This document shows, one piece after another, positions 1,201 through 16,653 of a DNA stretch of 16,653 nt. The notes beneath the pieces were generated by a model. That model was not told where the DNA came from. It worked only from the letters and a program-made list of their open reading frames with translations, and ran no database searches. This DNA is from a virus. Lineage: Duplodnaviria > Heunggongvirae > Uroviricota > Caudoviricetes. Location of the stretch: IMG/VR virus record IMGVR_UViG_2869947659_000004; one strand, written 5' to 3'. The position numbers and the translations under genes were made by a program. Position 1 is the first letter of the stretch, and every line of letters begins with the position of its first letter.

Positions 1201-2793
1201 ATGAATCAAAAATACCTCATTCGCATTGCAGAACTGGAATGCCAGCTCCGTCAGAAAGACCAGCAACTGAGTCTGGTTGAAGAGACGGAGGCCTTCCTGC
1301 GCTCTGCACTGGCCCGCGCCGAAGAAAAGATCGAAGAAGATGAACGGGAAATAGAACATCTGCGGGCTCAGATAGAAAAACTGCGCCGGATGCTGTTCGG
1401 TACCCGTTCTGAAAAACTGCGTCGTGAAGTTGAACAGGCTGAGGCCCTGCTGAAACAACGCGAACAGGACAGTGATCGTTACAGTGGGCGGGAAGACGAT
1501 CCGCAGGTTCCCCGCCAGTTGCGACAGTCTCGTCATCGTCGCCCGTTACCGGAGCATCTGCCCCGCGAAATAAATCGCCTGGAGCCAGAAGAAAGCTGTT
1601 GCCCGGAGTGTGGCGGTGAGCTGGATTATCTGGGGGAAGTCAGCGCAGAACAACTGGAACTGGTGAGCAGCGCTCTGAAAGTGCTCCGCACAGAACGGGT
1701 AAAAAAAGCCTGTACAAAATGTGACTGCATCGTTGAAGCACCGGCACTATCCCGTCCGATAGAGCGTGGTATCGCGGGCCCGGGGTTACTTGCCCGCGTG
1801 TTAACGGGAAAATACTGCGAACACCTGCCACTGTATCGTCAGAGTGAAATTTTTGCCCGTCAGGGTGTCGAACTGAGCCGTGCATTACTCTCCAACTGGG
1901 TTGACGCGTGCTGCCAGTTAATGACGCCGCTGAATGATGCTCTGTACCGTTATGTAATGAACAGCCGCAAAGTTCACACTGATGACACACCAGTAAAAGT
2001 GCTGGCACCGGGCAGGAAGAAGGCGAAAACAGGATATATCTGGACGTATGTCCGGGATGACAGGAATGCCGGTTCGCCAGAGCCTCCGACGGTCTGGTTC
2101 GCCTACTCACCGGACCATCAGGGTAAACATCCGGAGCAGCACCTTAGTCCCTTCCGGGGTATCCTGCAGGCAGATGCGTTTAATGGTTACGATCGGCTGT
2201 TCAGTGCCGAACGAGAAGGCGGCGCGTTGACGGAAGCAGGATGCTGGGCTCATGCGCGGCGCAAAGTCCACGATGTATATATCAGTACCAAAAGCGCGAC
2301 AGCGGAAGAAGCCCTGAAACTAATCGGTGAGCTGTACGCCATCGAGCACGAAATACGCGGGTTGCCGGTGTCTGAACGCCTGGCGGTCAGGCAAATGCAG
2401 AGTAAACCGCTACTGACTTCCCTGTATAAGCTGATGCAGGAGAAAGAACACACGTTATCGAAAAAATGCCGTCTGAGAGATGCGTTCCGGTATATCAGGA
2501 AGCACTGGGTTGCGTTGTGCAACTTCAGTGATGATGGTCTGGCTGAGGCGGATAATAATGCCGCGGAAAGAGCGCTTCGTGCAGTCTGTCTCGGAAAGAA
2601 AAACTTTATGTTCTTCGGCAGCGATCACGGTGGAGAGCGTGGTGCGCTACTGTACGGGCTGATCGGCACCTGCCGACTGAACGGTATCGATCCGGAAGCG
2701 TATCTGCGCTATATCCTGAGCGTACTGCCGGAATGGCCTTCCAACCGTGTTGACGAACTCCTGCCATGGAACGTAGCACTCACCAATAAATAA
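1201..2793 (+). CDS. IS66-family transposase TnpC
   Basis: 530-aa ORF with N-terminal coiled coil, CxxC…CxxC zinc-binding motif (CPECGGE…CTKCDC) and the IS66 transposase core; RBS-distance start after tnpB. Confidence 0.9.
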   Translation: MNQKYLIRIAELECQLRQKDQQLSLVEETEAFLRSALARAEEKIEEDEREIEHLRAQIEKLRRMLFGTRSEKLRREVEQAEALLKQREQDSDRYSGREDDPQVPRQLRQSRHRRPLPEHLPREINRLEPEESCCPECGGELDYLGEVSAEQLELVSSALKVLRTERVKKACTKCDCIVEAPALSRPIERGIAGPGLLARVLTGKYCEHLPLYRQSEIFARQGVELSRALLSNWVDACCQLMTPLNDALYRYVMNSRKVHTDDTPVKVLAPGRKKAKTGYIWTYVRDDRNAGSPEPPTVWFAYSPDHQGKHPEQHLSPFRGILQADAFNGYDRLFSAEREGGALTEAGCWAHARRKVHDVYISTKSATAEEALKLIGELYAIEHEIRGLPVSERLAVRQMQSKPLLTSLYKLMQEKEHTLSKKCRLRDAFRYIRKHWVALCNFSDDGLAEADNNAAERALRAVCLGKKNFMFFGSDHGGERGALLYGLIGTCRLNGIDPEAYLRYILSVLPEWPSNRVDELLPWNVALTNK

Positions 2794-2908: not shown

Positions 2909-3109
2909 ATGTCATCAAAGAACAGAACCCGCAGAACAACAACCCGCAACATCCGATTTCCAAACCAGATGATTGAACAAATTAACATCGCTCTTGATCT
3001 GAAAGGTTCAGGAAACTTTTCAGCGTGGGTTATTGAAGCCTGCAGGAGAAGGCTGGCAACAGATGCAACGCATCTGCGCCCGGCCAGCATGAAAAATAAC
3101 GAGAAATGA
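2909..3109 (+). CDS. ylcI: YlcI/YnfO-family (DUF3950) small prophage protein
   Basis: 66-aa ORF MSSKNRTRRTTTRNIRFPNQMIEQINIALDLKGSGNFSAWVIEACRRRL…, recalled as the DLP12 ylcI-type protein found near lysis/packaging genes of lambdoid prophages. Confidence 0.55.
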   Translation: MSSKNRTRRTTTRNIRFPNQMIEQINIALDLKGSGNFSAWVIEACRRRLATDATHLRPASMKNNEK

Positions 3110-3240: not shown

Positions 3241-3573
3241 TCAGGGTGCAGAAGGACTAAAGATAAACGTTTTCTTCACGCCTTTACACGGCCTGTCCTT
3301 CTCAAATCGCCATTTTGCCATCGCCTTTACAACCTGCTCATCAAACAAATGGTGCGGCTCTGAACGGATAAACTCAATTCGGGTGACAGTACCATCAGCA
3401 CCAATATCAAACTTCACATCAACCCGTCCCTTTATATAATTTGCCGCTGCATAGGCCGGATATTGTGGTAATGCCTTAACCAACTGTCGGGGCATATCTG
3501 TTTTATGTTGCGTACAGCCCATAACCAGAGAAGACAACAAAATAATTAACGGAAGGTTTCTTTTCATTTTCAT
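3241..3573 (-). CDS. Lipoprotein consisting of a TonB C-terminal-like domain
   Basis: Signal peptide plus lipobox (…LLSSLVMGC, +2 Thr). The mature part, PQYPAYAAANYIKGRVDVKFDIGADGTVTRIEFIRSEPHHLFDEQVVKAMAKWRF, aligns residue-by-residue with the E. coli TonB C-terminus (PQYPARAQALRIEGQVKVKFDV…AMRRWRY). Start is uncertain: GTG 3582, ATG 3573 or ATG 3567. Confidence 0.7.
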   Translation of the reverse strand: MKMKRNLPLIILLSSLVMGCTQHKTDMPRQLVKALPQYPAYAAANYIKGRVDVKFDIGADGTVTRIEFIRSEPHHLFDEQVVKAMAKWRFEKDRPCKGVKKTFIFSPSAP

Positions 3574-3911
3574 TCCCGGCACAGATAAGAATAAGTCTTA
3601 TTCTAACAATGCCACCCTGTCGGTCATCAATCCTCTGCTTAATGGCAACGACAATTATCCGACTTAAATCACAAATCAGACACATGACATAACAGAGCTT
3701 GCGAGGTAACACATCGTCCGGTTTCTTCCACCATCGCACCGGACCAGCGACCATGAGGGGACAACGCCGCGCTCCGTTAACGCGGTAAACCCCGGTGTGT
3801 ATCGTTTTTGATTATCCCCGCACACTCGCGCAGAGGAGTCTCCCGGTCGGGCTGCGGTCTCTGTTAATGCGGGGATACGGCGACAATACCGCGCATGGTT
3901 AATAAGGTCGC

Positions 3912-4136
3912 TCAACACACTGGCTGTAATGCAGCGGATACCATGCGGCATTTAGCGGCATTAATCGTACACTCAACGGTTAGCTCTTCATTCGTGGCAT
4001 TCACCTGAAAGGTCCGGGAGTGTAATTGCGTACATTTACCACTGAACGAACCTTCAACAAGAACACGACCACGCTGCAAAATACGGAACGGAATTGTTCC
4101 CTGAAAAGGCTTTACGGTTACCAGTAATTTCTTCAT
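3912..4136 (-). CDS. Hypothetical 74-aa protein (5 Cys, no signal peptide)
   Basis: ATG is preceded by GGAG at RBS distance (CCGGAGAATGCATG), immediately downstream of the spanin genes on the same strand. No family recognised. Confidence 0.4.
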   Translation of the reverse strand: MKKLLVTVKPFQGTIPFRILQRGRVLVEGSFSGKCTQLHSRTFQVNATNEELTVECTINAAKCRMVSAALQPVC

Positions 4137-4159: not shown

Positions 4160-4558
4160 CTAGTTAATACACTGAGTGCGGATATATTCCTGCGCCCCTT
4201 CCAGTTGCTTCTGCATTGTCATCAACCGCTCTCTGAGGGTGAAATAATCCCGTTCAGCGGTGTCTGCCAGTCGGGGGCCGGTTGCATTATCCATTCCGGA
4301 GGTGCCGGTGGCTTCACGCACGGTACCGGAGCAGGTGGCGTTGATCCGCAGGCGCTTACGACCAGCGGCAACATCACGCTGGCGCTGCTGCATGTCAGTA
4401 ATGGTTGCGTTTGCCAGCTCCAGCTCTCTGGCTTTTTTATCGCGCTGCGCTTTGTAGGTGATGGCGTTATCACGGTAATGGTCTGTTGCCAGCCACAGCG
4501 CACCACAGACCACCAGCAGAATAACGGTAAACGCGGAAAGCATTCGGTTTATGTTCAC
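4160..4558 (-). CDS. Rz: Spanin inner-membrane subunit Rz (i-spanin)
   Basis: …HYRDNAITYKAQRDK…PRLADTAERDYFTLRERL…MQKQLEG… matches lambda Rz. The track start at 4558 is GTG overlapping the upstream stop (GTGA); an ATG at 4543 is an alternative start. Confidence 0.85.
   Translation of the reverse strand: MNINRMLSAFTVILLVVCGALWLATDHYRDNAITYKAQRDKKARELELANATITDMQQRQRDVAAGRKRLRINATCSGTVREATGTSGMDNATGPRLADTAERDYFTLRERLMTMQKQLEGAQEYIRTQCIN
4222..4374 (-). CDS. Rz1: Spanin outer-membrane lipoprotein Rz1 (o-spanin), embedded in Rz in the +1 frame
   Basis: MLPLVVSACGSTPPAPVPCVKPPAPPEWIMQPAPDWQTPLNGIISPSESG: lipobox VSAC, proline-rich, near-identical C-terminus to lambda Rz1 (…WQTPLNGIISPSERG). Confidence 0.8.
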   Translation of the reverse strand: MLPLVVSACGSTPPAPVPCVKPPAPPEWIMQPAPDWQTPLNGIISPSESG

Positions 4559-5038: not shown

Positions 5039-5572
5039 TTATCTGTCGATGTCCCAGCACGCCAGCGCACTTTCCTGGTCTCGCCGGGATACCTGACCGT
5101 AGCAATTATTTGAGCGGATACGGCAGTCTCTGCCACCGTCCTTAATCCACCAGCGAATCGCTTCGCATGCTCCCCTGCGGTCACCAGCATTAATCCGTCT
5201 GTAAAACGTCGACGGGAAACACTTACCGGGGCCAATGTTATAGGGACAAAATGACGCGATACCCGCTTTCTGGGGTTCGGTCAGCGGCACTTTAATATTG
5301 CGCTCCACCCATGCCAGCGCCTTATCACGCTCAATGGCGTTGACCTGGTCGCATTTTTCCTTCGACAACTTCATGCCCGGGACGACAGGTTTACTATCCA
5401 CCAGGATGGCACCGCGGCAGATGGTCCAGATACCCGCGCCATCACGGTATGCCGTGGTGTGGTTACCTTCCTTTTCATCCAGAAACTGGTCGAGGATTTC
5501 AGGCGCAGGCGCACCTGCGGCAATCAGCGCCAGAACGGCAGCCGACAGGCCGTATTTGATTTTGGTGTTCAT
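5039..5572 (-). CDS. R: SAR endolysin (phage lysozyme, GH24) with N-terminal signal-anchor-release domain
   Basis: 177 aa; the Ala/Gly-rich weakly hydrophobic N-terminus (GLSAAVLALIAAGAPAPE) is followed by a T4-lysozyme-type catalytic region (…EGNHTTAYRDGAGIWTICRG…). Recalled as near-identical to Qin RrrQ. Confidence 0.9.
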   Translation of the reverse strand: MNTKIKYGLSAAVLALIAAGAPAPEILDQFLDEKEGNHTTAYRDGAGIWTICRGAILVDSKPVVPGMKLSKEKCDQVNAIERDKALAWVERNIKVPLTEPQKAGIASFCPYNIGPGKCFPSTFYRRINAGDRRGACEAIRWWIKDGGRDCRIRSNNCYGQVSRRDQESALACWDIDR

Positions 5573-5622
5573 GGATATTTATCAGGGTTTATCGATTTCA
5601 AATCCCTGGATATGTTAAGTCT

Positions 5623-5967
5623 TCAGGCCAGCGGTGGAGTCTTCAGAGAACCAGTAATTATTCCCGGTAGTTTTCCTCTGTAGGTTATCAACACATCCTG
5701 CGCCTCTAAAATTACGGGGCGCTTTTCCGGCAACGGACCATCCCCTTCACATAACCCGGCAGCAACATCCATGAAAAACTGCTTCGCCTGCTTTTTCGCC
5801 TCAGCTTCGTAAAACTCCAGCGTGGCATCTTCAGTACGGTCAAGACTAATCGCCACATCTGGCAACAACAGTGACGGATACCCACCAATTTCCAGTGCCA
5901 CAGTAACAGTAATCTTATTCGGGTAATTATTTATCCCTTTAACAACCAGTTCGTATTTTTTCTTCAT
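5623..5967 (-). CDS. DUF1327 (YdfR-like) prophage protein between holin and endolysin
   Basis: 114-aa soluble protein in the position occupied by ydfR between essQ and rrrQ in the Qin prophage; assignment is from recall. Confidence 0.6.
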   Translation of the reverse strand: MKKKYELVVKGINNYPNKITVTVALEIGGYPSLLLPDVAISLDRTEDATLEFYEAEAKKQAKQFFMDVAAGLCEGDGPLPEKRPVILEAQDVLITYRGKLPGIITGSLKTPPLA

Positions 5968-5971
5968 CGCT

Positions 5972-6187
5972 TTACTCTCCCCGCGCCGCCTTACGACGGT
6001 CCTCTCTGATTTTGAAATACAGGTTAGTCAGATATGTCAGCAGCCCAAACAACAGACTCCCCAGCACGCCTATTGCCGCCCACTGAGACGGGGAAACCCT
6101 GTCCAGCAACTGCAGGAACCAGTAGCCCGTTCCCACCGCTGACGTGGTGTATGACACACCTGTTGTGATTTTTTCCATCTGGTACAT
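5972..6187 (-). CDS. S: Class II holin, phage-21 S-like pinholin with dual start (71/68 aa)
   Basis: [71 protein letters not shown]: two TMDs, S21-like C-terminus, Met1/Met4 dual-start motif, SD GGGAG upstream. Confidence 0.9.
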
Positions 6188-6263
6188 ACCCCGTCTCCCG
6201 CAATCCGGAAGCTCACAACAATATAAAGACCACCGGCACACACCGATGGTCCCTTGCGCATGC

Positions 6264-6616: not shown

Positions 6617-7507
6617 TCAGGCTGCCAGATCATCGTTTCCGATGGAAGCATAATAAGCTTTTTCTGCTTCTGCCGGAGGGATGTGGCCCAGCCTTTCCAG
6701 CAATCGTCGATTATTATACCAGTCCACCCACGTGAGTGTGGCCAGTTCCACTTCTGCACGGTTTTTCCAGCTCTTACGGTGTATTACCTCCGCTTTGTAA
6801 AGACCATTGATGCTCTCCGCCATCGCGTTGTCATACGAGTCGCCTGTACTTCCTGTTGATGCCAGTAATCCGGCTTCCTTAAGCCGCTGTGTGTAGGCCA
6901 GCGATACATACTGAGAACCTTTATCACTGTGATGGACCGTGCCGGACGGTCGACGGGCCCATAACGCCTGCTCCAGAGCATCCAGCACGAATGTCGTTTC
7001 CATGGACGATGAGACCCTCCACCCCACGATGTATCCGGCAAACACATCAATAATGAACGCCACATAGACGAAGCCCTGCCATGTGCTGACGTAAGTAAAA
7101 TCAGCCACCCACAGCTGGTCAGGTCGTTCTGCCACGAACTGACGGTTTACGCGGTCGCCTGCGGCAACGGCTTTCCGGCTGATGGTCGTACGGACCTTTT
7201 TACCCCGGAGAACGCCGGCAAGTCCCATAACCGCCATGAGACGTGCCACAGTGCATCTGGCCACTCTGATACCTTCCCGTAACAACTGACGCCAGACTTT
7301 ACGCACACCGTATACCTGATGATTCCCATCGTATACGCGCAGTATCTCTTTCTTCAGCCAGTCATCGCGCTGCGCACGGGCACTGCGTTTATCAGGATGA
7401 TGTCGCTGTTGCTGACAGTGGTAATACGTTGACGGGGCAATATGTAGTTCACTGCATACCGGTCCGACCCCGTACAGCTTACGCAGCTTATCCAGCAGTG
7501 GCATCAC
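6617..7507 (-). CDS. IS3-family transposase OrfB (DDE integrase core)
   Basis: Same translation as 1..888 (+); overlaps orfA by 4 nt, consistent with an OrfAB frameshift fusion. Confidence 0.9.
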
Positions 7508-7821
7508 TGGCGGTCGAACTCCGCCTTCGCAAAATAAGCGGAAGCCTGGCGAAGGATATCGTTACTGCGGCGCAGTTCACGATTTTCACGTTCCAGCTCT
7601 TTCAGACGCTGACGTTCAGCGGTGGTGAGCCCGCCATCACCGCCTCCGGTATCCCGCTCATGCTGGCGTACCCAGACACGCAGAGTCTCCGGTGTACAGC
7701 CAATCTTTGGGGCAATGGAACAAATTGCCGCCCACTGTGAGTCATATTCGCCCTGACTTTCCAGAACCATACGAATCGCCCTCTGACGGACTTCGGGGGA
7801 AAAACGAGTATTTTTAGTCAT
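7504..7821 (-). CDS. IS3-family transposase OrfA (HTH)
   Basis: [57 protein letters not shown]…; 54-nt leader after the left terminal repeat. Confidence 0.9.
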
Positions 7822-7875: not shown

Positions 7876-8021
7876 GACTGACTGGCGCTGATTTTCTCAG
7901 CGGCCCTTTTATCAATCTGCCTGCACCAGAAATCGCGCACAGCCCTGTACCCACCCGAAAGAAGATACAGCACACAGACCGCCGTACAGAAGTACAGCAT
8001 CACCTGATGAATAAATGTCAT
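7876..8021 (-). pseudogene. Small membrane-protein ORF (about 60 codons before insertion) split by IS629 copy 2
   Basis: MTFIHQVMLYFCTAVCVLYLLSGGYRAVRDFWCRQIDKRAAEKISASQ| continues in frame across the removed IS (one GAC copy) as SAGSKPEEPVTP* at 6535..6571. Confidence 0.35.
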
Positions 8022-8160
8022 AATTTCTTACCGTTATGGTTGAAAATGAGAATTGTTTTCATTTAAAAAACCAATGTACGAAAGCATCTTTTCTTTACAT
8101 TCTCCATTGGGATTACCTCCGCCAGCTTCCATTCCTGCCGCTGGCGGCTTTTTTTAGCAA

Positions 8161-8659
8161 TTATGCGGCTGCTCCAGCTTTGTTTGCTTTAACTTCCACC
8201 GTATCAATAAGTACAGGGTAGGTTTCTGCACTACCTGTAATATCCGTAATGACAAACCTGTTGAGTCCATTAGCAGTATTGGCCCATTTCACCAGGTCAA
8301 ACGCCTGTCCATCCACACCATCAAGCACCGGAGTAACATTAATGCTGTTACTGCCCTTAAATTTAAATGCAAGCGTATGCCAGTCATGGTCGAATGCGCC
8401 AAACGTGCCAAGTTCTTTTTGTTGATTAACTGTATGATGGTATGCAACATTAATACTGGCTTTATCTGTCTGGACAAAGAAAGAACTCAGATGGCCTTCA
8501 CCACCCTCACCCGGCCATTCCGCTATTCGCCAGTACAAACCAAAGGCATACTTGTTTCTGGTTGTCTCAAGATTGACGTTTTCGGGGATTTTAAACCGGA
8601 CAGCAATTTCCCCGCCTTTTTCCAGTAAAAGTTTTGCCTTGTCTGCAGCAATATCACAG
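8161..8659 (-). pseudogene. nanS-p-like sialate O-acetylesterase, C-terminal segment (split by IS600)
   Basis: Frame continues exactly from 9924..11293 once IS600 and one copy of its target-site duplication are removed; the 174-aa track ORF starts inside IS600. Confidence 0.75.
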
Positions 8660-8723
8660 TGAGGTAGCCTGAGTTTAACGGACACTCCTTCCTGAAATAG
8701 AATGGCATCAGAAGGAGCTAATA

Positions 8724-9026
8724 ATGAGCAGAAAAAACCAACGTTACTCTAAAGAGTTCAAAGCCGAAGCTGTCAGAACGGTTCTTGAAAATCAACTTTC
8801 GATCAGTGAAGGCGCTTCCCGATTATCCCTTCCTGAAGGCACTTTAGGACAATGGGTTACCGCCGCCAGAAAAGGGCTCGGTACTCCTGGTTCCCGCACG
8901 GTGGCTGAACTGGAATCTGAAATTCTGCAACTGCGTAAGGCGTTAAATGAAGCTCGCCTTGAGCGAGATATATTAAAAAAAGCAACAGCGTATTTTGCAC
9001 AGGAGTCGCTGAAAAATACGCGTTAA
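8724..9026 (+). CDS. IS600 transposase OrfA
   Basis: MSRKNQRYSKEFKAEAVRTVLENQLSISEGASRLSL…; HTH plus leucine zipper typical of IS3-family OrfA. Confidence 0.9.
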   Translation: MSRKNQRYSKEFKAEAVRTVLENQLSISEGASRLSLPEGTLGQWVTAARKGLGTPGSRTVAELESEILQLRKALNEARLERDILKKATAYFAQESLKNTR

Positions 9027-9061
9027 TCGAACAATGGCGACAACAATTTCCCATTGAAGCG

Positions 9062-9880
9062 ATGTGTCAGGTATTTGGTGTATCCAGGAGCGGTTATTAC
9101 AACTGGGTACAGCATGAACCCTCAGACAGAAAACAAAGTGATGAGCGGCTAAAACTGGAGATTAAGGTGGCACATATCCGCACTCGCGAAACATATGGAA
9201 CCCGGCGGCTCCAGACGGAGCTGGCAGAGAATGGCATCATCGTTGGTCGTGACCGACTGGCACGTCTTCGTAAGGAGCTAAGGCTACGCTGTAAGCAGAA
9301 ACGTAAGTTCAGAGCGACTACGAACCCGAACCACAATCTGCCAGTTGCGCCAAATCTGCTGAACCAGACGTTCGCTCCTACAGCACCAAATCAGGTCTGG
9401 GTGGCGGACCTGACGTATGTTGCCACACAGGAGGGATGGTTGTACCTCGCTGGCATCAAAGATGTTTATACGTGCGAAATTGTCGGCTACGCCATGGGAG
9501 AGCGCATGACAAAAGAGCTGACAGGTAAAGCCCTGTTTATGGCGCTCAGGAGCCAGCGCCCACCTGCCGGGCTAATCCACCACTCTGATCGAGGTTCACA
9601 GTACTGCGCATACGATTACCGGGTCATACAGGAGCAGTCTGGTCTGAAAACATCAATGTCGCGTAAAGGTCACTGTTACGACAACGCTCCGATGGAAAGC
9701 TTCTGGGGAACGCTGAAAAATGAGAGCCTGAGCCACTATCGTTTTAATAACCGGGATGAAGCCATCTCAGTAATACGGGAATACATTGAGATTTTCTACA
9801 ATCGTCAGCGTCGTCACTCTCGTCTGGGGAATATCTCCCCGGCAGCCTTCAGGGAAAAATATCATCAGATGGCTGCTTAA
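9062..9880 (+). CDS. IS600 transposase OrfB (DDE)
   Basis: 272 aa with the IS3-family integrase core (…IHHSDRGSQY…, …CYDNAPMESFWG…). Confidence 0.9.
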   Translation: MCQVFGVSRSGYYNWVQHEPSDRKQSDERLKLEIKVAHIRTRETYGTRRLQTELAENGIIVGRDRLARLRKELRLRCKQKRKFRATTNPNHNLPVAPNLLNQTFAPTAPNQVWVADLTYVATQEGWLYLAGIKDVYTCEIVGYAMGERMTKELTGKALFMALRSQRPPAGLIHHSDRGSQYCAYDYRVIQEQSGLKTSMSRKGHCYDNAPMESFWGTLKNESLSHYRFNNRDEAISVIREYIEIFYNRQRRHSRLGNISPAAFREKYHQMAA

Positions 9881-9923
9881 AAAAAGAACAAATGGTAGTG
9901 TCCGCTATTGCCAGTACACCTCA

Positions 9924-11293
9924 CAGTACATTGACCAGGATTTCGCGCTGTTATTTTTCTCAATTCGCAGAGCTTTATTGCCGCTGTCATCAACCAGTGT
10001 GCGTCTGCCATACATACCGTCCCAGCCATAAGGTTTCAGCTGATTGTCTGTAGCTTTTTTGGCATCGTAAAAAATTACAGACTCTGAGGTGGTAACCGGC
10101 CTGTCTGGAACAACCACCCCGGCAGTACCATTAACAAACGCAGAAGACTTACCCGCGCAGCTCAGAATCGCCGTTGCCAGACGGTCGGAAATAATCCCAC
10201 GGCGAGCCCATGAACTGAAATGGCTCGCCCTGTCCTGTGACGTCCAGGTGGCTGAGCTGTCACGCCATTTCGAACCGTAATAACCGATACCCGGAATGTC
10301 CGGGTCTTCTTCCGGTTTGTTCGTCGGCACATTCACCCCGTTCTCATCGGTCATGAACGGTACGAAATGGATATTCTTTTCCGTTTTATTTTTATAGCTG
10401 CCGTACACCGTCTGGTACGTGGATTCGTTCTTCTGCTTCCAGAAATACGTCGTGTCCCCGCATATCCAGGGAACACCGCCAGCAGAGCCACCGACGCACT
10501 GGCCTGCCATATCCGCCAGGTCTGCACGGAATTTATCAACCAGCGCACCAAACTGTGCGGCATGATTTGCCGGCGTACCGCCAAAATCAAATTCCCCCTG
10601 CATCCACACCACGGCAAACAGCACATTTTTCGGGTTCTTCTCCAGTGCCGCTTTTGTTCGACCGATAAGGTCCTTATACAGCGGCTTGTCCACACCCCAG
10701 CGGGTTGAATTCTCCGAGGCACCACTCGCGTCACTGTATGTGCCATCAGCTCCGGTGGTGAACGCTGAACCACCACGACAGCACGGAACCAGCAGAATGC
10801 CCGCATTCGCCGGTATAAACGGCAGCAGTTTTTTGGCGATATGCAGCCCCTGCCCCACGGTTCCGTACTGCCCCTTTGACAGGTCCGCTTTCGGATGGTT
10901 AAGACGGCTCATGTCCTGCACATCATGCAGACAATGGTCCGCCGGAATGATGTCGTTATATTTGCATGCTGCACCGCCCGGTGTCACCGTACTGCGACGC
11001 GCCAGTTGCTTAATACGCGGGTCCGGACGGTCATATGTCCCCGGCAGCGGAAGGCCTTCACCATACGACATGCCGTTTGACTGCCCTGCCAGAACCACAA
11101 CAAAGTAATACTCCGGGTCGCTGGTGGCGCTGATTACTGCACCTTCTGCTGCAATCGCCTGCATCAGAGTATAAGGGGTTATGGCCACCGGACTACCAAA
11201 CGGCTGCCAGCCCTCTTTCAGTTTATGTGTCAGCTTTTCCGCAAGATCTGACGGCGACGCCGCCCTGACAACATCATAGTGTTTAAAAGCCAT
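9924..11293 (-). pseudogene. nanS-p-like sialate O-acetylesterase (prophage NanS-p / SASA-SGNH hydrolase), N-terminal 456 codons
   Basis: N-terminal prophage-type domain followed by the SGNH/SASA motif VVVLAGQSNGMSYGEG. Located between the tRNA cluster and the lysis cassette, as nanS-p is in Stx-type prophages. Interrupted by IS600 after codon 456. Confidence 0.75.
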
Positions 11294-12072: not shown

Positions 12073-13104
12073 TCATCCGTTCTGGCTGACTAAATCCTGT
12101 ACTTCCCGAACCGTCTGCTCAAAACGTTCAGTCTCCAGCTCAACGCCAATTGCACGACGCCCGAGCGCCAGTGCCGCTTTCACTGTCGAACCCGACCCCA
12201 TGAAAAAATCTGCAATCAGGTCACCCGGACGACTGCTAGCGCTGATTATCTGCTGCAGCATTTCTGCCGGTTTTTCGCACGGATGTTTCCCGGGATAGAA
12301 CTGCACCGGTTTATGCGTCCACACATCGGTATACGGCACCTGCACCGTCACGCCAAAATACCGCCGCAGATGTTTATATTCACTCAGCAGCTCCGCATAC
12401 TGCCGGTTCAGTGAGGTATACGTATCCACCAGCTGGTGGTGGAGCTTTTCCAGTTCACCACGCCGATGCTTCTCTTCTGCCACCCGGGCAAACAGCGCCT
12501 GTAATTTCAGATAATCGCTTTCATTCGGCAACTGCCACTGACTGGCACTGAACCAGTGCGACACCATGTTTTTCTTTCCTGTGGCATCTGCAATCTGTTT
12601 TGCCGTTATCCCCAGGGCAGCTCGCGCATCACGAAAGTAAGAAATCAGCGGGGCCATCACATGCTGTTTCAGTGCACTGCCCTTCACCGCATACCCGGCA
12701 TCTTTCGGACGATACGGCCCCTGATAATGTTCCGCGAACAGAATGCGCTCTGTGGCGGGGAAATACGCCCGCAGGCTTTCCTTGTTGCATCCGTTCCAGC
12801 GTCCGGACGGCTTCGCCCAGATAATATGGTTCAGCACACTGAAGCGTTCACGCATCATGATTTCGATATCAGATGCCAGGCGATGACCACAGAACAGGTA
12901 AAGACTTCCGGCAGGTTTCAGCACCCGCCAGAACTGCGCCAGACACTGGTCCAGCCACTTCAGGTAATCATCGTCGCCCTTCCACTGGTTATCCCAGCCC
13001 TCAGGCTTCACTTTAAAGTACGGCGGGTCCGTGACTATCAGGTCAACAGAATTTTCGGGTAACGACCAGATAAATTCCAGGCAGTCGGCGGGTAATGACT
13101 CCAA
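12073..13104 (-). CDS. DNA methyltransferase, beta-class (N6-adenine or N4-cytosine; motif IV DPPY before motif I FxGSGST); 5' end abuts IS1
   Basis: …SVDLIVTDPPYF… near the N-terminus and …DFFMGSGSTV… near the C-terminus. The first 4 to 5 codons (MESLP) lie inside the IS1 terminal repeat, so the native start was probably lost. Confidence 0.85.
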   Translation of the reverse strand: MESLPADCLEFIWSLPENSVDLIVTDPPYFKVKPEGWDNQWKGDDDYLKWLDQCLAQFWRVLKPAGSLYLFCGHRLASDIEIMMRERFSVLNHIIWAKPSGRWNGCNKESLRAYFPATERILFAEHYQGPYRPKDAGYAVKGSALKQHVMAPLISYFRDARAALGITAKQIADATGKKNMVSHWFSASQWQLPNESDYLKLQALFARVAEEKHRRGELEKLHHQLVDTYTSLNRQYAELLSEYKHLRRYFGVTVQVPYTDVWTHKPVQFYPGKHPCEKPAEMLQQIISASSRPGDLIADFFMGSGSTVKAALALGRRAIGVELETERFEQTVREVQDLVSQNG

Positions 13105-13105
13105 C

Positions 13106-13501
13106 TTACTGATAGTGTTTTATGTTCAGATAATACCCGATGACCTTGTCATGCAGCTCCACCGATTTTGAGAACGACAGTGACTTCCGTCCCAGCCTTG
13201 CCAGATGTTGTCTCAGATTCAGATTATGTCGCTCAATGCGCTGAGTGTAACGCTTGCTGATAACGTGCAGCTTTCCCTTCAGGCGTGATTCATACAGCGG
13301 CCAGCCATCCGTCATCCATACCACGACCTCAAAGGCCGACAGCAGGCTCAGAAGACGCTCCAGTGTGGCCAGAGTGCGTTCACCGAAGACGTGCGCCACA
13401 ACCGTCCTCCGTATCCTGTCATACGCGTAAAACAGCCAGCGCTGACGTGATTTAGCACCGACGTAGCCCCACTGTTCGTCCATTTCAGCGCAGACAATCA
13501 C
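13106..13501 (-). CDS. insB: IS1 InsB
   Basis: [28 protein letters not shown]… is the characteristic InsB sequence. Confidence 0.95.
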
Positions 13502-13527
13502 ATCACTGCCCGGTTATATGCGCGAGG

Positions 13528-13803
13528 TTACCGACTGCGGCCTGAGTTTTTTAAGTGACGTAAAACCGTGTTGAGGCCAACGCCCATAATGCGTGCACTG
13601 GCGCGACATCCGACGCCATTCATGGCCATATCAATGATTTTCTGGTGCGTACCGGGCTGAGAGGCGGTGTAAGTGAACTGTAGTTGCCATGTTTTACGGC
13701 AATGAGAGCAGAGATAGCGCTGATGTCCGGCAGTGCTTTTGCCGTTACGCACCACGCCTTCAGTAGCGGAGCAGGAAGGACATCTGATGGAAATGGAAGC
13801 CAC
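13528..13803 (-). CDS. insA: IS1 InsA
   Basis: [43 protein letters not shown]… is the characteristic InsA sequence. Confidence 0.95.
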
Positions 13804-13858
13804 GCAAGCACCTTAAAATCACCATCATACACTAAATCAGTAAGTTGGCAGCATTACC

Positions 13859-14106
13859 CGCTCGACGAGTGGAAACCAAAACGGTTCAGTCTCCCAATAA
13901 CAAACACTACCCTGGTGAAATACGGAAAACTAGGATACATCGTTCCAAGACCACAAAAAATTCGTGGGCGTTGGCTGATAGATCGCCGAGCAGTATTTGT
14001 TGGGCCTGGTGAAACGGGAATTGCGCCGGAAATTCATACTGGCGATGATGATGCACTGAAGGAGATTTTAACTCATGTCACCGAGGCCACGAAAAAACAG
14101 CACTGA
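13859..14106 (+). pseudogene. xis: Excisionase (lambda Xis-like), start codon removed by IS1
   Basis: …PLDEWKPKRFSLPITNTTLVKYGKLGYIVPRPQKIRGRWLIDRRAV… resembles lambda Xis (…LTLQEW…VRRWVRECRIFPPPVKDGREYLF…). No start codon exists after the IS1 end, and the 3' end overlaps int as in lambda. Confidence 0.6.
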
Positions 14107-14899
14107 CGTAGCCGGTCTTTACGAAAAGTTTGATCGCAGAACTGGCAGAGTTTACTACCAGTATAAAAATCCTGTGACTGGAAAATTTCACGGACTCGGA
14201 ACAGACAAAGGTAAGGCAGAAAAAATCGCTTCCACAGCCAATCAGCGAATAGCTGCAGCAGAAGCTGAATATTTCATGCGCAAAATTGATGAAAGTCCGT
14301 CAGCAACAAAACGTCGGGGTATCAGATTAAAGGCATGGGTTGATCGATATCTGAAAATACAGGACACGCGACTGAAAAATGGAGATATTGCAGCTACAAC
14401 TCACAAAGAAAAAACTCGAATGGCTGCATACCTGGTTTCCCGTCTGGGAAACCACCCATTGAAAGAACTGGAAGTAAGAGACTTTGCATTAATACTGGAT
14501 GAGTGGCTGGATAAAGACATGGTCAGCACAGCGAGAGTAAATCGTGGATTATGGGTTGATATTTATAAAGAAGCACAGCATGCAGGGGAAGTTCCTCCTG
14601 GATGGAATCCTCCGGAGGCTACCCGTAAACCGATCCCTAAAGTAACCAGAGCCAGGCTCACCATGGAAGACTGGCAAAAAATTTACAATGCAACGCCTGA
14701 AAAACACTTTATCCGTAACGCAATGCTTCTTGCGATTGTTACTGGTCAGCGCCGTGATGACATTTGCCACATGCGTTTTTCAGATGTGTGGAACGAACAC
14801 TTGCATATCACCCAGGGAAAAACCGGAATGCGTCTGGCGTTACCGCTTACACTACGCTGTGATGCCATTGGGATAACGTTAAAAGAAGTTATTGATGGG
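14075..14899 (+). pseudogene. int: Phage integrase (tyrosine recombinase, lambda Int family), 3'-truncated by IS600
   Basis: N-terminal arm-binding and core-binding regions are present, but the ORF runs straight into the IS600 left end at 14900, so the C-terminal catalytic region including the Tyr is missing from this window. Confidence 0.85.
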
Positions 14900-15413
14900 T
14901 GAGGTAGCCTGAGTTTAACGGACACTCCTTCCTGAAATAGAATGGCATCAGAAGGAGCTAATAATGAGCAGAAAAAACCAACGTTACTCTAAAGAGTTCA
15001 AAGCCGAAGCTGTCAGAACGGTTCTTGAAAATCAACTTTCGATCAGTGAAGGCGCTTCCCGATTATCCCTTCCTGAAGGCACTTTAGGACAATGGGTTAC
15101 CGCCGCCAGAAAAGGGCTCGGTACTCCTGGTTCCCGCACGGTGGCTGAACTGGAATCTGAAATTCTGCAACTGCGTAAGGCGTTAAATGAAGCTCGCCTT
15201 GAGCGAGATATATTAAAAAAAGCAACAGCGTATTTTGCACAGGAGTCGCTGAAAAATACGCGTTAATCGAACAATGGCGACAACAATTTCCCATTGAAGC
15301 GATGTGTCAGGTATTTGGTGTATCCAGGAGCGGTTATTACAACTGGGTACAGCATGAACCCTCAGACAGAAAACAAAGTGATGAGCGGCTAAAACTGGAG
15401 ATTAAGGTGGCAC
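14900..15413 (+). mobile_element. IS600, second copy, left 514 bp only; interrupted by IS2
   Basis: Identical to 8660..9173 of the complete copy; identity stops at 15413 where the IS2 terminal repeat begins. Confidence 0.9.
14964..15266 (+). CDS. IS600 transposase OrfA (copy 2)
   Basis: Identical 100-aa translation to 8724..9026. Confidence 0.9.
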   Translation: MSRKNQRYSKEFKAEAVRTVLENQLSISEGASRLSLPEGTLGQWVTAARKGLGTPGSRTVAELESEILQLRKALNEARLERDILKKATAYFAQESLKNTR

Positions 15414-15424
15414 TGGATTTGCCC

Positions 15425-16330
15425 CTATATTTCCAGACATCTGTTATCACTTAACCCATTACAAGCCCGCTGCCGCAGATATTCCCGTGGCGAGCGATAA
15501 CCCAGCGCACTATGCGGATGCCATTCGTTATAATGTTCGAACGCCTCTGCAAGGTTCTTTGCTGCCGTTAACCCGTCTGGTTTGGGCATGATACTGATGT
15601 AGTCACGCTTTATCGTTTTCACGAAGCTCTCTGCTATTCCGTTACTCTCCGGACTCCGCACCGCCGTGTTCTTCGGTTCAAGTCCCAACATCCGGGCGAA
15701 CTGGCGTGTTTCATTAGCCCGGTAGCATGAACCATTATCCGTCAGCCACTCCACTGGAGACGACGGAAGATCGTTGCCGAAGCGGCGTTCCACCGCTCCC
15801 AGCATGACGTCCTGTACTGTTTCACTGTTGAAGCCGCCGGTAGTCACCGCCCAGTGCAGTGCCTCACGATCACAGCAGTCCAGCGCGAACGTGACACGCA
15901 GTCTCTCTCCGTTATCACAGCAGAACTCGAACCCGTCAGAGCACCATCGCTGATTGCTTTCTTTCACGGCCACTCTGCCTGTATGTGCCCGTTTCGATGG
16001 CGGTACAGCAGGTTTTCGCTCAAGCAACAGCGCATTCTGGCGCATGATCCGGTAAACACGTTTGGCATTGATCGCAGGCATACCATCAAGTTCTGCCTGT
16101 CTGCGAAGCAGCGCCCATACCCGACGATAACCATACGTGGGCAGCTCTCCGATAACATGGTGTATACGGAGAAGCACATCCGTATCATCAGTGTGACGAC
16201 TGCGGCGGCCATCCATCCAGTCATCGGTTCGTCTGAGAATGACGTGCAACTGCGCACGCGACACCCGGAGACAACGGCTGACTAAGCTTACTCCCCATCC
16301 CCGGGCAATAAGGGCGCGTGCGCTATCCAC
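15425..16330 (-). CDS. insD: IS2 transposase InsD (OrfB)
   Basis: [43 protein letters not shown]…, 301 aa. Confidence 0.95.
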
Positions 16331-16653
16331 TTTTTTGCCCGTCCATATTCAACGGCTTCTTTGAGGAGTTCATTTTCCATCGTTTTCTTGCCGAGCAGGC
16401 GCTGGAGTTCTTTAATCTGCTTCATGGCGGCAGCAAGTTCAGAGGCAGGAACAACCTGTTCTCCGGCGGCCACAGCAGTAAGACTTCCTTCCTGGTATTG
16501 CTTACGCCAGAGAAATAACTGGCTGGCTGCTACACCATGTTGCCGGGCAACGAGGGAGACCGTCATCCCCGGTTCAAAGCTCTGCTGAACAATTGCGATC
16601 TTTTCCTGTGTGGTACGCCGTCTGCGTTTCTCCGGCCCTAAGACATCAATCAT
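16288..16653 (-). CDS. insC: IS2 InsC (OrfA)
   Basis: [56 protein letters not shown]…; the start codon is at the last three bases of the window. Confidence 0.95.

Follow-up and report, generated by a model that had tools for sequence, protein, structure and literature searches.

Many phages, group B colicins, microcins, albomycin and siderophore-conjugated antibiotics enter cells through TonB-dependent transporters. Two phage-encoded outer-membrane lipoproteins, Llp of phage T5 and Cor of lambdoid phages, inactivate one of these transporters, FhuA. Llp acts from the outer-membrane inner leaflet on the periplasmic face of FhuA, where TonB binding competes. A detached piece of TonB can also be inhibitory, i.e., a periplasmic TonB domain, when overexpressed in E. 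coli, inhibits TonB-dependent iron import, as stated in PMC9841981 where it cites Howard et al. 2001. We analyzed a 16,653-nucleotide stretch of Caudoviricetes DNA, IMG/VR virus record IMGVR_UViG_2869947659_000004 (the whole stretch is called the window in the following). On its minus strand it carries a gene for a small lipoprotein whose mature part is a TonB C-terminal domain. An earlier note, made from the sequence alone, had described the product as a prophage lipoprotein that might compete with TonB at receptors, as a means of superinfection exclusion or colicin protection.

Compared with these systems, the TonB-like lipoprotein shares one feature with the engineered periplasmic TonB fragments of Howard, Herrmann, Stratilo and Braun (2001), namely a domain detached from its energy source. 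As these fragments appear in the citing paper, they were artificial, soluble and overproduced, whereas the window protein is natural, conserved and predicted to be membrane-tethered. Like Llp and Cor, it is a small phage-encoded lipoprotein, but its fold is unrelated to theirs, as a fold search of the PDB gave TonB and TolA only. Moreover, Llp and Cor are specific for FhuA, whereas a TonB mimic could address every Ton box. The gene positions also differ: the TonB-like gene sits after the lysis genes, and phage 21, which carries a homologue, has no cor annotated beside its tail genes.

The earlier note had placed the gene at 3241-3582. A minus-strand open reading frame (ORF) is indeed found there, with GTG at 3582 as its mechanical start. 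Two ATG codons follow downstream, at 3573 and 3567, and a Shine-Dalgarno-like GGGAA (3573..3577, minus strand) precedes only the second one by 5 nt. Phage 21 has AGGAA at this place, annotated as ribosome-binding site (RBS). Moreover, the equivalent Met is the start in all database homologues and in the curated phage 21 annotation. From the RBS and the homologue starts we hence take the ATG at 3567, and not the GTG, as the likely start. The prolipoprotein coding sequence then spans 3241..3567 on the minus strand, stop included, and encodes 108 amino acids (MKRNLPL...).

The precursor consists of the signal peptide MKRNLPLIILLSSLVMG (residues 1-17; 3517..3567, minus strand), the cleavage site, the stretch C18-TQHKTDM and the TonB-type domain. 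The signal peptide has K2 and R3 followed by a hydrophobic core and contains no His. It ends in the lipobox L14-V-M-G-C18 (3514..3528, minus strand), with Cys18 as the predicted lipidation site and Thr at position +2. The signal peptide and lipobox claimed earlier were thus borne out: the PROSITE lipoprotein pattern PS51257, which asks for Cys at positions 15-35 and K or R within the first seven residues, matched the copies of the window, phage 21 and the Klebsiella phage and most members of the family clade. The lipobox Cys is nearly invariant in the family alignment, and the +2 residue is T, S, A or V and never Asp, the Lol avoidance signal. In E. coli, a +2 residue other than Asp directs a lipoprotein to the outer membrane, and by this rule the prolipoprotein with its +2 Thr would be sorted there. 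An outer-membrane location is hence predicted for the mature form of 91 amino acids (about 10.4 kDa, pI 9.6).

Profile searches clearly assigned this mature part to TonB. Pfam PF03544 (TonB_C) matched with E=1.4e-14 and 54.7 bits at a cut-off of 24.6, TIGR01352 with 54.4 at a cut-off of 27.1, and in the NCBIfam TonB equivalog models only the last ~85 positions aligned. The Pfam scan returned TonB families only. The solved C-terminal domains of E. coli and Salmonella TonB were matched at E~4e-16 to 3e-15. Residues 26-108 align without gaps with residues 153-235 of E. coli TonB at 37% identity, in keeping with the end-to-end alignment of about 90 mature residues that had been proposed. From profile, alignment and model we assign the TonB C-terminal domain to residues 26-104 (TonB 153-231; 3256..3492, minus strand).

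An AlphaFold model with pLDDT 85-93 across residues 30-108 gave the secondary-structure order helix 38-42, strands 47-55 and 61-70, helix 76-84 and strand 94-103. The top Foldseek matches were 2gsk_B, 1u07 and 2grx_C (target TM 0.83-0.88, rmsd 1.2-2.1 Å), and the best superposition was obtained with TonB of the BtuB:TonB and FhuA:TonB complexes, at a target TM of 0.88. The fold expected by the earlier note is therefore found in the predicted model. TolA domains ranked far behind TonB, and nothing else in the PDB search reached significant scores. In the viral structure library BFVD, the model matched nothing at E<=1e-3.

Like the E. coli TonB C-terminal domain (residues ~150-239; 1u07, 2gsk, 2grx), the protein hence combines the TonB fold with the YP motif (Y163, P164), present at the aligned positions, and with seven key residues. 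Cysteine scanning identified Y163, F180, G186, F202, W213, Y215 and F230 as functionally important in TonB (PMC3005593). All seven positions are retained in the window protein, with Y215 to F as the sole change, and across the clade they are invariant or aromatic. The equivalent of TonB Q160 is Leu. In TonB, the Q160L allele compensates for mutations in the Ton boxes of FhuA and colicin M (PMC11658791), and Leu at this position is therefore compatible with Ton-box contact.

Unlike TonB, the protein is lipid-anchored and ends four residues earlier. The uncleaved signal anchor of TonB with its essential His20 is absent, the signal being of the cleavable lipoprotein type, and so is the proline-rich spacer that spans the periplasm. 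As proposed earlier, neither spacer nor inner-membrane anchor was found: the mature protein contains 7.7% Pro and no second hydrophobic segment, and the domain begins about eight residues past Cys18. The features by which TonB transduces energy are thus missing, and as the protein has no membrane helix, coupling to ExbB/ExbD is not expected from the sequence; exbB and exbD are not among the annotated ORFs of the window.

The gene is widespread and conserved. Four Stx1a-converting phages and phage Lys8385Vzw encode exactly the window protein (100% identity), and the copy in phage JLK-2012 shares 99% identity with it. Of 5426 complete E. coli genomes, 414 contain the 701 bp around the gene, as do 176 viral contigs of IMG/VR. 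The phage 21 allele, annotated as 'TonB C-terminal domain protein', is 72% identical to the window protein, and its type is present in 1221 of the 5426 genomes, including ST131 EC958, APEC O1 and LF82. Altogether, 22-30% of complete E. coli genomes carry the gene. Between the window and phage 21 alleles we obtained a dN/dS of 0.13 (dS 1.37), i.e., purifying selection acts on the protein.

More distant members, found by an exhaustive representative search and a species-level genome scan, share 33-49% identity, have 107-133 amino acids and contain the lipobox in nearly all cases. In a neighbor-joining tree, the short lipoproteins (about 110 amino acids) from phages, plasmids and chromosomes form a clade of their own, apart from the TonB C-terminal domains of enterobacteria and with the signature SEPxHLFD, AKWRFExxKP. 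Because of this separation from genuine enterobacterial TonB, we rejected a recent capture of the 3' end of a host tonB gene. Also, the gene is no fragment of a chromosomal tonB-like paralogue, an origin that the earlier note had considered, because a conserved signal peptide of its own, purifying selection and its place in the separate clade all speak against it. It rather belongs to an older, distinct lipoprotein family that was recruited by lambdoid phages.

Named a prophage lipoprotein in the earlier note, the protein is prophage-borne in the window, but the family extends to chromosomes and plasmids of Klebsiella, Raoultella, Serratia, Erwinia and Pantoea. Chromosomal members adjoin lac genes in Klebsiella and Raoultella; that of Serratia grimesii has minCD and dsbB-like genes nearby, and in Pantoea they stand among non-phage ORFs, some of them flagellar-like by eye. 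Plasmid members were found in 94 records, mostly from Klebsiella and Pantoea.

In phages, the gene occupies a common slot: the holin, endolysin and spanin genes precede it, and HNH/terminase or cos comes next. We found this arrangement in five diverged phage backgrounds, among them phage 21, a Klebsiella phage, a Serratia prophage and a Salmonella prophage on plasmid pLG25p2. The slot is the one in which lambda carries bor, as the earlier note had stated: with the spanin genes on one side and cos/terminase on the other, the homologues of phage 21 and of the EC958 prophage are separated from bor/iss by about 0.5 kb. Like lambda bor/iss, it is an accessory lipoprotein gene between Rz and cos. 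Unlike Bor, however, the protein shows neither sequence nor fold similarity to it, and bor is oriented opposite to the late-gene strand, whereas the TonB-like gene is on the late-gene strand. Phage 21 and the icd prophage of ST131 EC958 carry the TonB-like gene together with bor/iss and the iron/manganese transporter sitABCD (regions 12968-16417 of the phage 21 record, and 13581-14681 and 37153-40602 of the EC958 record). The window-type phages lack sitABCD.

We also inspected the region upstream of the gene. The window contains the palindrome AGAATAAG-A-CTTATTCT, a perfect 8-bp inverted repeat at 3584..3602, i.e., -35..-17 from the start. Scored over 19 positions against the Fur-box consensus GATAATGATAATCATTATC, it reaches 13/19 (region-wise P ~0.1), which is weak alone: in a control set of 398 upstream regions, 10.5% reached 13/19 and 3.5% reached 14/19. 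The known Fur/Mn-regulated sitA promoter scores 17/19 by the identical measure. In 12 of the 17 main-set family loci, a site of at least 14/19 lies no more than 65 bp from the start, mostly at -37..-16, and the window palindrome coincides in position with sites of 14-16/19 in homologues. The highest score, 17/19, was found in S. grimesii, followed by Klebsiella sp. R390, the Serratia prophage and Erwinia typographi (16/19) and four Raoultella loci (15/19). Five further copies scored 15/19 (Salmonella prophage and Klebsiella sp. R445 chromosome) and 14, 14 and 13/19 (Klebsiella plasmids). Iron regulation of the family thus looks likely, as judged from these sites. Phage 21 has no Fur-like site in its upstream region, where the right arm of the palindrome is missing, and Fur-like regulation has possibly been lost in the E. 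coli phage alleles. We set the window palindrome aside as a conserved operator, because of the arm missing in phage 21 and a Fur score that is not significant alone. A promoter scan found a promoter-like site at 3600..3627 (minus strand), composed of ATGACC, a 16-nt spacer and the extended -10 element TG-n-TAGAAT. The -10 element is partly conserved in phage 21, where no sense promoter was called upstream of the gene, and the count of promoter-like sites was not above the shuffle expectation.

On plasmids, some members have neighbors connected with bacteriocins. In Klebsiella pneumoniae plasmid pRHB16-C24_2, the gene for the TonB-domain lipoprotein is directly followed by one for an Exc2-family lipoprotein, and it adjoins a cloacin-type immunity gene and the insertion sequence (IS)-truncated rRNase domain of a colicin E3/cloacin-type bacteriocin (7956-9717 of the locus record). 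Two other Klebsiella plasmids encode lipobox proteins of 123 and 171 amino acids that otherwise consist solely of a TolA C-terminal domain (PF06519, E~1e-24; lipobox LLTAC or LITAC) and are annotated simply as 'TolA'. Their genes, at 653-1024 and 3529-4044 of the two K. pneumoniae plasmid records, respectively, lie 3-6 kb from the gene for the TonB-domain lipoprotein. Like the window protein, these TolA-domain lipoproteins (WP_001237044-like) combine a lipobox with the ligand-docking domain of an energy transducer alone. They differ from it in the domain itself, in having no Fur-like site at their genes and in being known here from plasmids only. By its sequence signatures, a design of lipid anchor plus docking domain is thus found for each of the two import pathways used by colicins and phages.

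We propose that the window protein is an outer-membrane-tethered, non-energised TonB mimic that would occupy Ton boxes, a reading we prefer while holding it with somewhat less than even confidence. Cys18 and the first helix are about 16-20 residues apart, and a tether of this length would keep the domain just beneath the TonB-dependent transporters. As the TonB fold and its key residues are kept, Ton-box pairing is possible, and edge strand 94-103, the equivalent of TonB β3, would pair with a Ton box, be it that of a transporter or that of a group B colicin on its way in. As anchor, spacer and a link to ExbB/ExbD are absent, such docking would be unproductive. The outcome would be dominant-negative, i.e., the Ton box of receptor or colicin would be sequestered and the bound receptor would not be energised. 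Phages such as T1 and phi80 could be blocked at their TonB-dependent step, as could colicins and microcins, and siderophore uptake might be hindered to some extent. The gene might then serve the phage as an accessory (moron) gene that shields the lysogen or the infected cell. The slot shared with the outer-membrane lipoprotein moron bor/iss counts as support for such a mimic, and so do the TonB-type fold with its seven retained residues, the conserved lipobox, the low dN/dS and the precedents of the overexpressed periplasmic domain and of Llp and Cor. By analogy, the bacteriocin-remnant neighborhood and the parallel TolA lipoproteins would support it as well, and the Fur-like sites would tie expression to the condition when TonB-dependent gates are most abundant. 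As a speculation, if the lipoprotein lowers TonB-dependent iron uptake, the co-carried TonB-independent sitABCD could compensate.

Several points weigh against this proposal. A general TonB block would be costly; the genomes that carry the gene include those of ST131, APEC O1 and LF82, lineages that rely on TonB-dependent siderophores. The chromosomal homologues seem, from their upstream sites, to be induced by iron starvation, which would be paradoxical for a pure inhibitor, and the E. coli phage copies have just a weak Fur-like site (window) or none (phage 21). Sigma-70 promoter scans stayed at chance level with nothing consistent across phages, so that expression in lysogens is presumed. 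TonB R158, Q160 and R166 are not conserved across the clade; R158 and R166 are contact residues in the structures of TonB-receptor complexes. The PADLOC defence models gave no match to the protein. The family is not prophage-specific, so that an interpretation as exclusion is incomplete, and the informative plasmid neighborhoods are few and IS-scrambled. Also, the inhibition cited in PMC9841981 relied, as described there, on overexpression.

The strongest competitor is a modulator or helper. The protein would be iron-regulated and would assist TonB-dependent uptake instead of blocking it, either by pairing with the real TonB C-terminal domain or by pre-engaging Ton boxes, so that scarce TonB could be localized to, or shared out among, the many derepressed transporters. 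For phages, it would then be a host-fitness gene like sitABCD. Fur-like sites in most members, including the core-chromosome copies of Serratia, Raoultella, Klebsiella and Erwinia, fit this idea, as do the co-carriage of sitABCD and iss/bor in phage 21 and the ST131 EC958 icd prophage and the high frequency of the gene in successful lineages of extraintestinal pathogenic E. coli (ExPEC). However, sitABCD is not a companion of the gene in the window-type phages, a detached domain cannot couple energy, and no case is known to us in which a TonB domain acts positively when detached. TonB C-terminal domains are dimeric in crystals (1u07, 1ihr), which would suit pairing with TonB, but these dimers were argued to be absent in vivo (PMC3005593). 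The sole experimental precedent that can be cited, as given in PMC9841981, is inhibitory. We regard a helper as unlikely, and yet it stays alive because a TonB block would be costly, the gene abounds in ExPEC, the chromosomal homologues seem to be induced by iron starvation, TonB R158, Q160 and R166 are not conserved and lysogen expression is in doubt. The Fur-like sites and the co-carriage of sitABCD link both a blocker and a helper to iron.

An envelope or virulence role unrelated to Ton boxes is improbable. The protein would bind peptidoglycan or another envelope component and confer serum resistance or robustness, like Bor/Iss, with which it shares the slot and the adjoining gene position. 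It is small and basic, and contact with peptidoglycan has been proposed for the C-terminus of TonB. Against this stand the lack of any Bor similarity in the Pfam scan and the nature of the retained residues, on which the work of TonB with transporters and colicins depends. Moreover, the putative Fur-type regulation and the neighborhoods with bacteriocin and TolA-domain genes point to import machinery.

A third alternative, in which the protein would belong to the late operon as a spanin-like or accessory lysis factor, is very improbable, although a database label supports it: phrog_1267 (lysis, 'Rz-like spanin') covers the whole protein with E=7.7e-43. The protein is a lipoprotein, as o-spanins are, and its gene follows Rz/Rz1 on the late-gene strand in every phage examined. 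However, neither an N-terminal membrane helix with coiled coil, nor a short proline-rich lipoprotein, nor a C-terminal membrane helix is found, i.e., features of Rz, Rz1 and unimolecular spanins, respectively, and we therefore rejected a spanin identity. Spanins of the Rz/Rz1 type are already present in the window, phage 21 and the Serratia prophage, and homologues occur in core-chromosome and plasmid settings without lysis genes. The family match itself is strong, and the label is most likely a misannotation based on position. A weaker match to phrog_34172 (251 positions) suggests that some phages may encode longer TonB-like proteins.

The window itself is a decayed lambda-like prophage from which the terminase and structural genes are missing. 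On the minus strand, a P21-type holin (5972-6241), YdfR/DUF1327 (5623-5967) and a lysozyme (5039-5572) make up one part (5039..6241) of the lysis cassette, followed by Rz, a 74-amino-acid ORF and the TonB-like gene. The Rz i-spanin (4160..4558, minus strand; Pfam Phage_lysis, E=1e-32) has 132 amino acids when read from a GTG, compared with 153 amino acids (459 bp) for the 'lysis protein' of an intact relative. Embedded in it, ORF inspection revealed an Rz1-like proline-rich lipoprotein ORF (4222-4374), which presumably begins later than lambda Rz1 does. The spanin pair of the window may be damaged. The hypothetical 74-amino-acid ORF between Rz and the TonB-like gene (3912..4136, minus strand), also hypothetical in E. 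coli 14EC001, matches just positions 100-172 of the 291-position phrog_2571 of unknown function and may be a fragment of a longer gene. In phage JLK-2012, a KilA-N protein occupies this interval.

On the other side of the TonB-like gene, a convergent YlcI/YnfO (DUF3950) gene (2909..3109, plus strand) normally precedes HNH/terminase. Intact relatives have the HNH endonuclease and terminase next to ylcI, where the window has an IS66-family transposase (1201..2793, plus strand), annotated as IS66-like element of the ISEc23 family in matching E. coli records. IS-rich intervals and truncations extend over 1-2793, 6617-7821, 8724-9880, 13106-13803 and 14075-16653 and comprise several IS3-family elements (two with identical Pfam scores), the single IS66-family transposase and IS1 insA/insB. 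The lambda-type integrase is cut after about 275 amino acids. As cargo, the window carries an IS-flanked DUF1737/SASA carbohydrate esterase at 9905-11293 (462 amino acids versus ~617-650 in relatives) and an N6/N4 DNA methyltransferase at 12073-13104. At most 47% of the window is covered in one place by any complete E. coli genome, and the number of insertion sequences is reminiscent of Shigella. Such heavy IS disruption and loss of the terminase and structural genes would suit a non-functional remnant, a reading that is already largely refuted and has hardly any probability left, as the ORF is undamaged, has identical counterparts in phages that are complete and inducible, shows the dN/dS given above and keeps length and lipobox across genera.

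The gene has already been annotated publicly as 'TonB family protein', 'TonB C-terminal domain protein' or 'tonB-like membrane protein', and full-text literature searches returned no functional study of the lipoprotein. The earlier guess that the exclusion mechanism had not been described agrees with these searches, which found no paper describing it. New in our analysis are the Fur-box-like sites upstream of most members and the pairing on plasmids with a bacteriocin remnant or with a TolA-domain lipoprotein. The protein would plausibly join the lipoproteins of phages and mobile elements that disable TonB-dependent gates, here by mimicry of TonB. If this holds, TonB gates would be closed from inside with a broad spectrum, in a manner mechanistically distinct from the receptor-specific Llp and Cor.

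In a wider and quite tentative view, which we think possible though doubtful, lipoproteins with Ton- and Tol-docking domains would form an unrecognized class of mobile 'import-machinery decoys' in Enterobacterales. Its TonB version would be the present family, often under Fur control, and its TolA version that of the Klebsiella plasmids. During receptor derepression, phages, plasmids and some chromosomes would use them to protect cells from phages, colicins and microcins that depend on Ton or Tol. Such a shield would then stand beside iss in about one quarter of E. coli genomes, including those with the ST131 icd prophage. As the phage 21 type stands beside this virulence marker in pandemic ExPEC, it could affect host range in phage therapy, bacteriocin competition and iron uptake. 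If the protein instead aids or rations TonB, it would represent new biology for a much-studied system.

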